Assembly (NCBI RefSeq): GCF_016026235.1
Contig: NZ_CP065613.1
Direction: 5' to 3' (one strand)
From: Escherichia coli
GTDB lineage: Bacteria; Pseudomonadota; Gammaproteobacteria; Enterobacterales; Enterobacteriaceae
Length of the DNA: 64,000 bases
Under the pieces are notes generated by a model. The model saw only the letters and a program-made list of their open reading frames with translations, had not been told where the DNA came from and ran no database searches. The translations under genes were made by a program, and so were the position numbers. Position 1 is the stretch's first letter, and every line of letters begins with the position of its first letter. Shown piece by piece: positions 10,130 to 40,156 of this stretch.

Positions 10130-10225
10130 TTAAATTCTAAAATAATCACGAAAAAAATTTTACTTCCGCCTCATGCGGCGAATGTGGGAATTGCCCAGGC
10201 GGCGGGGGATAGGGGCTGGAGACAG

Positions 10226-10248
10226 TTATCCACTATTCCTGTGGATAA
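10226..10248. promoter_or_regulatory. Pair of inverted DnaA-box-like 9-mers (ttatccact / tgtggataa) in the uvrB upstream region
   Basis: Matches to TTATNCACA; uvrB is reported to have a DnaA-regulated promoter. Confidence 0.45.
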
Positions 10249-10550
10249 CCATGTGTATTAGAGTTAGAAAACACGAGGCAAGCGAGAGAATACGCGGCTT
10301 GCACGCGAATTGGCGTTAAAGACGGCTCAAAGAAATATCTTTTATTTTTTAACTGGTTAGATAAATGCAATGGCAGTCACTGAACAGGCATCTCTTGCCA
10401 TAAAACTGTCATCACTCATCTTGACAAATGTTAAAAAAGCCGTTGCTTTGGGGATAACCCGGTAAGGCCGGAGTTTTATCTCGCCACAGAGTAAATTTTG
10501 CTCATGATTGACAGCGGAGTTTACGCTGTATCAGAAATATTATGGTGATG

Positions 10551-22122: not shown

Positions 22123-22533
22123 ATGAAGTGGCAACAACGTGTTCGTGTCGCAACGGGTCTAAGTTGCTGGCAGATTATGTTGCATTTACTGGTAGTGGCG
22201 CTGCTGGTGGTGGGCTGGATGAGTAAGACTCTGGTTCACGTCGGCGTGGGATTATGCGCACTGTATTGTGTCACGGTAGTGATGATGCTGGTGTTTCAGC
22301 GCCACCCCGAGCAACGCTGGCGTGAGGTGGCAGACGTGCTGGAAGAGCTGACCACGACCTGGTATTTTGGCGCAGCGCTGATTGTGCTGTGGCTGTTGTC
22401 CCGCGTACTGGAAAACAACTTTTTGCTGGCAATTGCAGGGCTGGCAATCCTTGCCGGCCCGGCGGTAGTGTCTTTGCTGGCGAAAGATAAGAAGTTACAT
22501 CACCTTACGTCTAAACATCGCGTACGCCGCTGA
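22123..22533 (+). CDS. ybhQ: Inner membrane protein YbhQ, 136 aa
   Basis: ORF 22123..22533; its 3' end overlaps convergent ybhR by 39 nt. Confidence 0.8.
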
Positions 22534-23601
22534 CCCTGTCGTGGCCGTTATCACCAGTAGCGGCCACAAACTATTCCACACAATATCCAGACTCGCATCC
22601 TTCAAATAAATCTGCTTGGTAATGTCCGTAAAGTGGCGAATAGGGTTAATCCACGTCAGGTTTTGCAGCCATACCGGCATGTTTTCCACCGGAGAAACGT
22701 AACCGGAAAGGAGAATGGCGGGCATCATAAAGACAAACACGCCGATAAACGCCTGCTGTTGTGTTGAACAGAGTGATGAAATCAACAGACCGAATCCCAC
22801 CAGCGATAAACCATAAATCACCATCGTAAAGTAGAACAGCGCCAGCGATCCGGCGAAGGGGATTTGATACGCCCAGATACCAATCGCCAGCACAATGGTG
22901 GCCTGGAAGGTGGCGACAATTAACGCCGGTACGGCTTTGCCGATGAAGATCTGCCAGGTGGTGAGCGGCGAAACCAGTAGCTGATCGAGCGTACCTTGTT
23001 CACGTTCGCGGGCGACGGAAAGTGAAGTGACGATCATTACGCCGATAGTGGTGATCATGGCGATCAGTGACGGCACCACAAACCATTTGTAGTCGAGATT
23101 CGGGTTATACCAGTTGCGTACCACCAGCTCGCTGTTGTTAGGTTTCGGTTTTCCTTCCAGCAGCTCCTGCTGATAATTTTTGACGATCTGTTGCAGGTAG
23201 TTGGCGGCAATTTGCGCACTGTTGGAGTTACGCCCGTCGAGGATCAACTGCAAAGGCGCGGTCTGGAAGGTATCCAGTTTGCGCGAGAAGTCAGCCGGGA
23301 AACGCACCAGTAGTAACGCCTTTTGTGTGTCGATGGTTGGGCGGATCTCCTGTGGGCTTTTCAGCAGCAGCACATGAGTAAAGGCGCTGGCGCGGGCAAA
23401 ACGTTGGGTCAGCTCCACCGAATGCTCGCCGTTATCTTCATCGTAGATGGCGATGGTGGCGTTAGTCACTTCCAGCGTGGCGGCGAACGGGAACAGGATC
23501 ACCTGAATTAGCACGGGTAAAATCAGAATCGCGCGGGTTTGCGGTTCGCGCAGCAACGACTGCAACTCTTTGCGGATTAACGTCCATAAGCGATGAAACA
23601 T
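22495..23601 (-). CDS. ybhR: ABC-2 type transporter permease, 368 aa
   Basis: ORF 22495..23601. Confidence 0.9.
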
Positions 23602-23611
23602 GCTCTTCTCC

Positions 23612-24737
23612 CTAATCCAGCCGACGTTTGGTTTTCAGCCACGTCAGGCCGATAAACATCACCGCCGAAGCGATCAAAAACAGCACGTTTACCACCAGCA
23701 CCACTGGAATATTCCCGGCGAGGAACAGGCTTTGCAGGGGGCTGACGAAATAACGAGCGGGAATAATGTACGTCACCGCGCGGATCACCGCGGGCATACT
23801 GTCGATCTGAAAAATAAAGCCGGAAAGCATAATCGACGGCAGGAACGCGGCGTTCAGGGCGACCTGAGCGGCATTGAACTGGTTGCGGGTAATCGTGGAA
23901 ATCAGCAGCCCCATCCCCAGGGTACTGAGTAAAAACAGGCTGGAGATAAAAAACAGAATCAGCAGCGAACCGCGATACGGCACGCCGAGAATAAACACTG
24001 ACACCAGCATACACAGCAACATCGCCAGCATACCGAGAAAGTAATAAGGGATCAGCTTACACAGCAGCAGTTCCGTGCGGGTAATCTCCGTAGAGAGCAG
24101 AGCCTCCATGGTGCCGCGTTCCCACTCCCGCGCCACCACCAGCGAGGTGAGAATCGCGCCGATGACCGTCATGATGATGGTCACCGCACCGGGGATAATG
24201 AAGTGCTGGCTAATCGCCGCCGGGTTAAACCAGTAGCGGGTTTGTACATCAATAAGCGGTTCAAAAGTCTGCCCGTTGTCCTCCGCTCGCTGCATTTGCC
24301 AGATCTGCCAGATCCCTTCGACATACCCCTGTACAAAGTTAGCGGTATTCGGCTCACTGCCGTCGGTGATCACCTGAATCGGTGCGGTGGCGTTGGCGCG
24401 CTCCATCTGTTCCGCAAAATCCACCGGAATAACCACCAGACCGCGAATTTTCCCCGCCTGCATTTTGGCGATCAGTTCCTGACGGTTATCGCTGATGGTG
24501 GCGTCGATGTAGGGCGAACCGGTCATAGTGTGGGTGAAATCCAGCGCCGCTTCGCTACGCTGTTCCAGTAAAATCCCGACCCGCAGCTTGCTGGAGTCGA
24601 GGTTAATGCCGTAACCAAAAATAAACAGCAGCAACAGCGGGATCACTACCGCAATCAGCCAGCTACTCGGATCGCGAACGATCTGCCGCGTCTCTTTGAC
24701 GCACAGCGCCCGCACGCGACGCCAGGAAAGGATCGGG

Positions 24738-24745
<8 letters not shown>
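23612..24745 (-). CDS. ybhS: ABC-2 type transporter permease, 377 aa
   Basis: ORF 23612..24745. Confidence 0.9.
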
Positions 24746-28136
<3,391 letters not shown>

Positions 28137-28149
28137 CGCACAGTCCATT

Positions 28150-28171
28150 CTTAATCAAATGATTGATTAAG
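28150..28171. promoter_or_regulatory. Perfect 9-4-9 palindrome cttaatcaa-atga-ttgattaag immediately upstream of ybiH; candidate TetR-type (CecR) operator
   Basis: Read directly; lies in the ybiH/rhlE divergent region at the ybiH start. Confidence 0.45.
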
Positions 28172-28364
28172 ATTATGACTCCATAGGGGAGTTGTCCAGT
28201 ATGGCTAAGAATTTTAGCTACGCCAGTCACAGGGATAATTTATGCGCTGCGTCACAAAAACTGCTACACTCCGCTCCCTCATGACATTGTGGTTTTTGTC
28301 ATTTTCCTTTTCAGTATCTCCCTGAAAACTACACCGGTAACGGTCGGGGCGGTTCGGAGTAGTT

Positions 28365-29729
28365 ATGTCTTTCGATTCTTTGGGTTTAAGCCCTGATATC
28401 CTGCGCGCCGTTGCCGAGCAGGGTTACCGTGAACCCACCCCTATTCAGCAGCAGGCGATCCCTGCGGTGCTGGAAGGCCGCGACCTGATGGCTAGCGCCC
28501 AGACCGGCACCGGCAAAACAGCGGGCTTTACGCTGCCGCTGTTGCAACACCTGATCACTCGCCAGCCGCACGCCAAAGGGCGTCGTCCGGTACGTGCTCT
28601 CATTCTTACCCCGACCCGTGAACTGGCTGCGCAGATTGGCGAAAACGTCCGTGATTACAGCAAATATCTGAACATTCGTTCGCTGGTGGTGTTTGGCGGT
28701 GTCAGCATTAACCCACAAATGATGAAGTTGCGCGGCGGCGTTGATGTGCTGGTGGCAACGCCGGGACGTTTGCTGGACCTGGAACATCAGAATGCAGTGA
28801 AGCTGGATCAGGTTGAAATCCTCGTCCTCGATGAAGCTGACCGCATGCTCGACATGGGCTTTATCCACGATATCCGTCGCGTGTTAACAAAACTACCTGC
28901 GAAGCGCCAGAACCTGTTGTTCTCCGCGACCTTCTCTGACGATATTAAAGCCCTGGCGGAAAAACTGTTGCACAACCCGCTGGAAATCGAAGTGGCACGC
29001 CGCAATACCGCGTCTGATCAGGTGACCCAGCATGTTCACTTTGTTGATAAGAAGCGCAAACGCGAATTGCTGTCGCACATGATTGGGAAAGGGAACTGGC
29101 AGCAGGTGCTGGTGTTTACCCGTACCAAACATGGCGCTAACCATCTCGCTGAACAGCTTAATAAAGATGGCATCCGTAGTGCGGCGATCCACGGTAATAA
29201 ATCGCAAGGTGCGCGTACCCGTGCGCTGGCCGATTTTAAATCGGGCGATATTCGCGTACTGGTAGCAACTGACATCGCCGCGCGCGGCCTGGATATCGAA
29301 GAGTTGCCGCACGTCGTCAACTATGAGCTGCCAAACGTACCGGAAGATTATGTCCACCGCATCGGGCGTACCGGTCGCGCGGCTGCTACCGGTGAAGCGT
29401 TGTCGCTGGTGTGTGTTGATGAACACAAACTGCTGCGTGATATCGAAAAACTGCTGAAAAAAGAGATCCCGCGCATTGCGATTCCGGGCTATGAGCCGGA
29501 CCCGTCAATCAAAGCCGAACCGATCCAGAACGGTCGCCAGCAACGTGGCGGCGGTGGTCGTGGGCAGGGCGGTGGTCGCGGTCAACAGCAACTACGCCGT
29601 GGAGAAGGTGGTGCAAAATCTGCAAGCGCGAAGCCTGCAGAAAAACCGTCTCGCCGCCTCGGCGATGCCAAACCGGCAGGCGAACAACAACGTCGCCGCC
29701 GTCCGCGTAAACCTGCCGCTGCGCAGTAA
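28365..29729 (+). CDS. rhlE: ATP-dependent DEAD-box RNA helicase, 454 aa
   Basis: ORF 28365..29729; DEAD box (VLDEADRM), basic RGG-rich C-terminus. Confidence 0.95.
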
Positions 29730-38730: not shown

Positions 38731-40156
38731 TAATGCCGATCAGTTAAGGATCAGTTGACCGATCCAGTGGCTGTGTAAGAATCCGGAAACGCTCACTTGT
38801 TTCCGGATTTTTTTATGCACATTGGACAGGCTCTTGATCTGGTATCCCGTTACGATTCTCTGCGTAACCCACTGACTTCTCTGGGGGATTACCTCGACCC
38901 CGAACTCATCTCTCGTTGCCTTGCCGAATCAGGTACTGTAACGCTACGCAAGCGCCGTCTTCCCCTCGAAATGATGGTCTGGTGTATTGTTGGCATGGCG
39001 CTTGAGCGTAAAGAACCTCTTCACCAGATTGTGAATCGCCTGGACATCATGCTGCCGGGCAATCGCCCCTTCGTTGCCCCCAGTGCCGTTATTCAGGCCC
39101 GCCAGCGCCTGGGAAGTGAGGCTGTCCGCCGCGTGTTCACGAAAACAGCGCAGCTCTGGCATAACGCCACGCCGCATCCGCACTGGTGCGGCCTGACCCT
39201 GCTGGCCATCGATGGTGTGTTCTGGCGCACACCGGATACACCAGAGAACGATGCAGCCTTCCCCCGCCAGACACATGCCGGGAACCCGGCGCTCTACCCG
39301 CAGGTCAAAATGGTCTGCCAGATGGAACTGACCAGCCATCTGCTGACGGCTGCAGCCTTCGGCACGATGAAGAACAGCGAAAATGAGCTTGCTGAGCAAC
39401 TTATAGAACAAACCGGCGATAACACTCTGACGTTAATGGATAAAGGTTATTACTCACTGGGACTGTTAAATGCCTGGAGCCTGGCGGGAGAACACCGCCA
39501 CTGGATGATACCTCTCAGAAAGGGAGCGCAATATGAAGAGCTCAGAAAACTGGGTAAAGGCGATCATCTGGTGAAGCTGAAAACCAGCCCGCAGGCACGA
39601 AAAAAGTGGCCGGGACTGGGAAATGAAGTGACAGCCCGCCTGCTGACCGTGACGCGCAAAGGAAAAGTCTGCCATCTGCTGACGTCGATGACGGACGCCA
39701 TGCGCTTCCCCGGAGGAGAAATGGCGGATCTGTACAGTCATCGCTGGGAAATCGAACTGGGATACAGGGAGATAAAACAGACGATGCAACTGAGCAGGCT
39801 GACGCTGAGAAGTAAAAAGCCGGAGCTTGTGGAGCAAGAGCTGTGGGGTGTCTTACTGGCTTATAATCTGGTGAGATATCAGATGATTAAAATGGCGGAA
39901 CATCTGAAAGGTTACTGGCCGAATCAACTGAGTTTCTCAGAATCATGCGGAATGGTGATGAGAATGCTGATGACATTGCAGGGCGCTTCACCGGGACGTA
40001 TACCGGAGCTGATGCGCGATCTTGCAAGTATGGGACAACTTGTGAAATTACCGACGAGAAGGGGAAGGGCCTTCCCGAGAGTGGTAAAGGAGAGGCCCTG
40101 GAAATACCCCACAGCCCCGAAAAAGAGCCAGTCAGTTGCTTAACTGACTGGCATTA
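38731..40156 (+). mobile_element. IS4: Complete IS4 insertion sequence (1426 bp) with terminal inverted repeats
   Basis: Ends taatgccgatcagttaagg ... and reverse-complement partner ...taactgactggcatta; length equals canonical IS4; flanked by a 12-bp direct repeat. Confidence 0.9.
38815..40143 (+). CDS. insG: IS4 transposase, 442 aa
   Basis: ORF 38797..40143 trimmed to [16 protein letters not shown]. Confidence 0.9.

Follow-up and report, generated by a model that had tools for sequence, protein, structure and literature searches.

The palindrome between cecR and rhlE of Escherichia coli is very probably the CecR operator and forms a conserved footprint in the Enterobacteriaceae

The intergenic spacer between cecR (ybiH) and rhlE of Escherichia coli contains a palindrome with the conserved core TTAATCAA-N4-TTGATTAA, at positions 28151-28170 of the 64-kb stretch of chromosome that was analyzed (the window). 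This core is very probably the operator of the TetR-family regulator CecR, at which the bound protein would block RNA polymerase and repress cecR together with the YbhG/YbhFSR export system until a ligand releases it from the DNA. The CecR box at this position is already known, and the site as such holds no novelty; the present analysis contributes a footprint across species, the distinction between an 8-4-8 core and a 10-4-10 form found in Escherichia only, the result that the spacer has no second site, and a predicted overlap with the cecR promoter.

The Palindrome and Its Genomic Context

The window is part of an E. coli chromosome. A 1051-nt stretch of it is 100% identical to FDAARGOS_943 and 99% identical to MG1655, and the same stretch was found in 5423 out of 5426 complete E. 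coli genomes. The RefSeq annotation of the 100%-identical record was carried over to the window coordinates, resulting in the following genes around the palindrome.

22495-23601, minus strand: ybhR, ABC exporter gene (annotation)
23612-24745, minus strand: ybhS, ABC exporter gene (annotation)
24738-26474, minus strand: ybhF, ABC exporter gene (annotation, Pfam ABC_tran)
26467-27462, minus strand: ybhG (annotated hlyD), membrane-fusion protein (annotation, Pfam HlyD)
27465-28136, minus strand: cecR (ybiH), TetR-family regulator of 223 amino acids (RefSeq, Pfam TetR_N and CecR_C)
28365-29729, plus strand: rhlE, DEAD-box helicase gene, divergent from cecR (annotation, Pfam DEAD and Helicase_C)

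A preliminary description of this DNA had placed a TetR-family gene at the head of a ybiH-ybhGFSR cluster, in agreement with the RefSeq assignment of cecR, its Pfam TetR_N and CecR_C domains and the divergent orientation of rhlE. [quoted passage not shown] Co-transcription of ybhG, ybhF, ybhS and ybhR with cecR is described in the literature (PMC5934670, PMC12998191). The cecR/rhlE spacer has a length of 228 bp (28137-28364) and the box lies inside it. In at least 65 out of 79 loci the divergent neighbor is rhlE, as it is at two distant CecR homologues with 49% and 46% protein identity.

The palindrome was resolved into the following parts.

28150-28158: first arm of the inverted repeat, cttaatcaa
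28159-28162: central four bases, atga
28163-28171: second arm, ttgattaag, perfectly complementary to the first
28151-28170, no strand: conserved core of the CecR box, TTAATCAA-N4-TTGATTAA (conservation)
28149-28172, no strand: Escherichia-specific 10-4-10 extension of the repeat (repeat search and alignment)

The perfect 9-4-9 inverted repeat CTTAATCAA-ATGA-TTGATTAAG was read from the sequence at 28150-28171, where it had been reported. The annotated start codon of cecR occupies 28136-28134 on the minus strand; the base of the repeat nearest to it is located at -14 and 13 nt separate the repeat from the ATG, which bears out the earlier statement that the repeat lies 14 nt upstream of the gene. 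A repeat search identified perfect arms of 10 nt (28149-28158 and 28163-28172) with 4 nt between them, making the repeat 10-4-10 in E. coli. The 9-4-9 extent of the preliminary description consequently holds for E. coli but not as the conserved unit, since only the 8-4-8 core at 28151-28170 is conserved. The 8-4-8 core, which is a perfect 20-bp palindrome in most genera, falls within the general size of TetR-family operators (a dyad of about 15-30 bp).

An in-frame ATG is present at 28146-28148 (minus strand), 12 nt upstream of the annotated cecR start, and would give an open reading frame of 227 amino acids (MDCAMNN...). It adjoins the palindrome, with 28149 being the flank base of the 10-4-10 form. 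The columns of this upstream ATG vary among genera and the annotated ATG is kept in 75-76 out of 78 sequences; the upstream ATG is probably not used.

Conservation of the CecR Box

A total of 12 CecR orthologues were aligned and 80 species-level loci were taken from the GTDB genome collection, 79 of which were usable (Enterobacteriaceae). The core is identical at 16 out of 16 positions in 77 of the 79 orthologous spacers and the remaining two loci carry one mismatch each. Every one of the 79 loci contains exactly one box, located 12-17 nt from the start codon. Measured from the start of the tblastn match, the distance is 12-16 nt in 77 loci; in L070 and L080, where the match begins at query residue 9 or 5, an ATG follows 12 and 17 nt past the box.

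In a MAFFT alignment of 78 spacer sequences, 14 of the 16 core columns are identical in all sequences and the other two in 77 out of 78. The box thereby forms an island of near-100% columns, and the bases between box and ATG as well as most of 28178-28232 vary freely. The flank columns 28149, 28150, 28171, and 28172 are variable among genera, and the outer C/G and T/A pairs occur only in Escherichia. The central four bases follow the pattern TC(G/A)(A/T): Escherichia has TCAT on the cecR strand and most genera have TCGA, which results in the perfect 20-bp palindrome TTAATCAATCGATTGATTAA. The helix-turn-helix region of CecR (residues ~32-55) is almost wholly invariant in the aligned orthologues, matching the invariant operator. 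As defined by conservation, the box TTAATCAA-N4-TTGATTAA transfers across the Enterobacteriaceae for genome annotation.

More distant CecR homologues were obtained by an exhaustive representative search. A homologue with 59% protein identity has the exact box within a 30-bp perfect palindrome, 16 nt from the start, and a homologue with 49% identity has a box with 15 out of 16 matches, 17 nt from the start, in a locus where a DEAD-box helicase gene is again divergent. No canonical box was found upstream of a homologue with 46% identity (2211-2500 of L088/L089; GCA_051692785.1, GCA_000527295.1), the best match there (TTAATTTAGATTGATGAA) being degenerate (13/16), wrongly spaced and 136 nt upstream. 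This homologue keeps the rhlE-like/cecR/ybhG/ABC gene order and an unchanged helix-turn-helix motif; its operator either diverged or lies elsewhere. Because the helix-turn-helix is kept in a homologue that lacks the box, the distant loci do not lend themselves to an argument from co-variation of regulator and operator.

Within E. coli, 5408 of the 5423 locus-bearing genomes contain an exact copy of the 30-mer centered on the box, the median number of places per genome being one. For comparison, exact copies of a 30-mer that spans the cecR start were found in 5365 E. coli genomes, and exact copies of a control 30-mer taken from a variable segment of this spacer in 2981. The next best match to the core elsewhere in the 64-kb window is 13 out of 16. 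The pattern of 18 specified bases formed by the 9-nt arms has one match in the window with up to three mismatches allowed, and none of 100 dinucleotide shuffles contained a match. What the genomes show directly is the sequence of the box, that it is unique and conserved, and that it is linked to cecR.

Perfect repeats by themselves are not rare. First-order Markov simulations give an expectation of about 0.75 repeats per 64 kb when the arms measure 10 nt or more and the spacer 0-8 nt, which scales to about 0.003 for the 228-bp spacer. With arms of at least 9 nt and the same spacers, about 2.75 arise by chance per 64 kb in the simulations and the real window contains about 12 distinct ones, a frequency that would allow the palindrome to be a functionless AT-rich inverted repeat. 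Taken alone, the palindrome is indeed only mildly unusual, and it is the combination of position and invariance across species that rules out chance: the core is invariant over about 79 species beside spacer bases that vary, its distance to cecR is fixed, the box is retained at 49-59% protein identity, and within E. coli it is steadier than the control segment of the spacer. To judge from the aligned sequences, a chance origin is already refuted by the conservation data, and its probability is negligible.

Identity with the Published CecR Site

Yamanaka, Shimada, Yamamoto, and Ishihama (Microbiology 162:1253, 2016) reportedly obtained one clear CecR site by gel shift and DNase footprinting. 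This site reportedly includes the complete palindrome AATTAGTT-AACTAATT. Read 5' to 3', neither AATTAGTT nor AACTAATT is present on either strand of the cecR/rhlE spacer. Their complements are TTAATCAA and TTGATTAA, each of which occurs once in the spacer, at 28151 and 28163. The reported palindrome can therefore be placed in the spacer only as the complement of 28151-28170, which would make the published site the present palindrome written on the complementary strand. A location of the known CecR site elsewhere, which the preliminary description had named as an observation that would speak against its proposal, is accordingly not what was found, and the literature likewise puts the site in the spacer. 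A full-text literature search that combined YbiH with the box sequence or its complement returned no paper, and the sequence alone returned unrelated papers only. Compared with the CecR box of Yamanaka et al., the locus, the regulator, the palindrome, the single target and the autorepression are the same and no substantive difference is apparent; their box is that of E. coli K-12 and the present window comes from a non-K-12 strain.

A recent paper attributes to Yamanaka et al. 2016 the placement of the CecR-recognized DNA sequence in the cecR-ybhGFSR/rhlE spacer, and cites reporter assays showing that control is negative for the cecR operon and positive for rhlE (PMC12998191, FEBS J 2025). Three papers list CecR among the regulators for which genomic SELEX gave a single target (PMC5934670, PMC5210515, PMC8249747). 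In Gao et al. 2018, ChIP-exo in vivo agrees with SELEX, the motif is a palindromic AT-rich inverted repeat and some extra CecR peaks are mentioned (PMC6237786). Gao et al. describe the inverted repeats as "separated by 7-nt" (PMC6237786), a wording that has no literal match in the 8-4-8 description.

These reports also bear on the question of which protein occupies the site. Nucleoid proteins often bind AT-rich palindromes near promoters, and another regulator might mainly bind or share the site, with the association of CecR being secondary. Against this, the box is strictly tied to cecR orthologues with one box per locus, it occurs only once in the E. coli genome, in contrast to the sites of global regulators, and genomic SELEX gave a single CecR target in the spacer (PMC5934670, PMC5210515). 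A main or shared role for a protein other than CecR is considered highly improbable.

A Predicted Promoter Overlaps the Box

The conserved columns upstream of cecR contain a promoter-like pair of hexamers.

28193-28198, minus strand: predicted -35 of the cecR-ybhGFSR promoter, TGGACA (conserved columns)
28170-28175, minus strand: predicted -10 of the cecR-ybhGFSR promoter, TAATCT, 17 nt from the predicted -35 (conservation)

Across 78 sequences the -35 columns are conserved as T in 78, G in 68, G in 78, A in 78, C in 78, and A in 70, within a surrounding stretch that is variable. The pattern TAnnnT is present in 78 out of 78 sequences, with T28175, A28174, and T28170 invariant, and the final T of the predicted -10 (28170) is the first base of the CecR box. 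A consensus promoter scan of 27900-28600 called no promoter; the predicted -10 was not called because of its score of 3/6, and the promoter model accordingly rests on conservation. The hexamer CATAAT (28177-28172, 15-nt spacer) was also considered as the -10 and judged less likely, as its final T is lost in 15 out of 78 sequences and the A at position 2 in 5 out of 78. With either choice, transcription of cecR is predicted to start within the left half of the box, at ~28162-28165. A conserved TGGACA-17-TAnnnT promoter would thus overlap the box in the usual geometry of a TetR-type repressor.

A palindrome so close to a start codon might act at the level of RNA rather than as protein-binding DNA, by forming a stem-loop in the cecR 5' leader that influences mRNA stability or translation. 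A transcript covering all of 28180-28137 would form a hairpin of 10 bp plus flanking pairs (-14 kcal/mol, z = -4.2 vs. shuffles), located 13 nt from the cecR start codon. However, both candidate -10 hexamers (TAATCT and CATAAT) would start transcription inside the left arm, so that the hairpin would not be transcribed whole, and the flanking pairs that stabilize it are specific to Escherichia. The stem columns are identical in 78 out of 78 sequences except for two at 77 out of 78, with no compensatory change and not even G-U substitutions; such invariance in the absence of covariation fits base-specific protein contacts and not a constraint on structure only. Each arm of the core has one G/C among its eight bases, a composition unlike the G+C-rich stem of an intrinsic terminator. 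A terminator scan of 27900-28600 found none at the palindrome, the sole terminator-like site being located within cecR and irrelevant here, and an Rfam scan of 28000-28500 (E<=1) gave no match. Recognition of a DNA sequence in the spacer by CecR is reported in PMC12998191. Taken together, there is very little to recommend a function of the palindrome as an RNA stem-loop.

The reading of 28151-28170 as the CecR operator leads to the following model. A CecR homodimer would contact the half-site TTAATCAA with one helix-turn-helix domain and the half-site TTGATTAA with the other. The first base of the box is also the last one of the predicted -10; with the expected transcription start of cecR inside the box, the bound dimer would occlude the -10/+1 region, and the resulting block of RNA polymerase would repress cecR and the YbhG/YbhFSR export system. 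Binding of a cephalosporin or chloramphenicol in the C-terminal tunnel of CecR would then cause the protein to leave the DNA and the operon to be derepressed. We infer how exactly promoter and box overlap, that repression is steric and that ligands release the protein, the last from the TetR-family paradigm together with the antibiotic binding to CecR that was measured in PMC12998191. No DNA-bound structure is reported in that paper (PMC12998191). The paper states that deletion of cecR makes cells more antibiotic-sensitive (PMC12998191), an outcome that is outside the prediction of a simple "efflux-pump repressor" model.

The operator and the autoregulation that had been suggested on the basis of the palindrome gain support from the literature on the spacer site and its negative control, from the footprint in 77 out of 79 loci, from the fixed distance to the start codon and from the conserved promoter-like pair. 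The TetR-type geometry is similarly consistent with a dyad that lies beside the regulator gene, is conserved together with it and overlaps the predicted promoter. The site would control an ABC-type export system, YbhG/YbhFSR, that is tied to cefoperazone, chloramphenicol, tetracycline and CCCP phenotypes. Since the box governs a drug-linked exporter, mutations in the operator or in cecR can alter drug tolerance. In a study of experimental evolution under CCCP, a cecR mutation and a cecR-rhlE intergenic mutation were selected in strain C-B11-1 (bioRxiv 10.1101/392977).

The rhlE Side of the Spacer

A second copy of the palindrome, thought possible near rhlE when the repeat was first described, was not found in 28137-28364. 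The next best full site in the spacer matches at 10 out of 16 positions, variable spacers did not improve the result, and no second half-site within one mismatch is present in this interval.

28262-28270, plus strand: predicted extended -10 of rhlE, TGcTACACT (prediction based on conservation)

The TA-A-T positions of this element are invariant in an alignment of 26 sequences and the TG is present in all 58 sequences listed. Variants of the hexamer are TAGACT, TAAACT, and TAGAAT. Further upstream of rhlE, GATAAT (28234-28239) is a second conserved -10-like hexamer.

Relative to the predicted rhlE start, the center of the CecR box is located ~116 bp upstream, an atypical distance for direct activation of rhlE, and the spacing between box and rhlE is loosely conserved (169-268 nt across orthologous loci). 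It is doubtful, if conceivable, that the single CecR operator, with no second site, also directly activates rhlE from this unusual distance. If it did, CecR would be a bifunctional TetR-family protein that acts via one shared site, for example by DNA bending, topology, or relief of competition between the divergent promoters.

The block 28233-28340 upstream of rhlE is the most conserved part of the spacer outside the box. Within the rhlE 5' leader (28277-28359, plus strand), which is highly conserved and appears structured, the following helices are proposed.

28277-28280 with 28356-28359, plus strand: CCUC with the Shine-Dalgarno sequence GGAG
28283-28286 with 28297-28300, plus strand: GACA with UGUC
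28289-28296 with 28325-28332, plus strand: GUGGUUUU with AAAACUAC, crossing the GACA/UGUC hairpin
28316-28324 with 28345-28353, plus strand: AUC.CCCUG with CGGGG..GGU
28333-28335 with 28342-28344, plus strand: ACC with GGU

Among 26 diverse sequences, the proposed leader pairs are formed in 98.9% of cells compared with 40-59% when the partners are slid. Compensatory changes occur in four pairs (12 cells, a number that 0 out of 500 shuffles reach) and come from two clades only. The leader matched no Rfam family (28000-28500, E<=1) and a literature search on an E. coli rhlE leader found no paper. By analogy, the leader may be an uncharacterized translational control element of rhlE; the analogous case is the leader-mediated autoregulation of deaD (PMC7430678).

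Other Palindromes in the Window

Further perfect palindromes in the window include the following.

48103-48130: perfect 28-bp palindrome CTGCATGGTTATGCATAACCATGCAG inside the ompX coding sequence, of unusual length for a coding region
40127-40152: perfect inverted repeat GCCAGTCAGTTGCTTAACTGACTGGC with arms of up to 11 nt, inside the rlmF coding sequence
10225-10249: perfect 9-7-9 repeat GTTATCCAC-tattcct-GTGGATAAC between bioD and uvrB, ~400 bp upstream of uvrB

Both arms of the repeat at 10225-10249 resemble DnaA boxes (TTATCCACA). Binding of DnaA close to a uvrB promoter has been reported.

Comparison with Other TetR-Family Operators

Besides CecR itself and the Salmonella orthologue, the nearest solved TetR-family relative of CecR by sequence is RutR, whose helix-turn-helix region gives the strongest PDB match other than CecR (E ~1e-6). 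The consensus of the E. coli RutR box is TTGACCAnnTGGTCAA. Like the CecR box, the RutR box is a site for a TetR-family dimer with dyad symmetry and short half-sites. The two boxes differ in geometry (7-2-7 in RutR vs. 8-4-8 in CecR) and in the sequence of their half-sites, and CecR has a single target where RutR has several.

The operators tetO (TetR), IR1 (QacR) and acrR/acrAB (AcrR) are likewise inverted repeats in the spacer beside the regulator gene. They overlap the efflux promoter or its start, and the repressor is released on drug binding; QacR binds its operator as two dimers. In contrast to this class, in which the regulator genes are divergent from their targets, cecR is co-transcribed with its target operon. 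CecR also differs from the regulators of tetO, IR1, and acrAB in its reported dual role, which includes activation of the divergent rhlE (PMC12998191).
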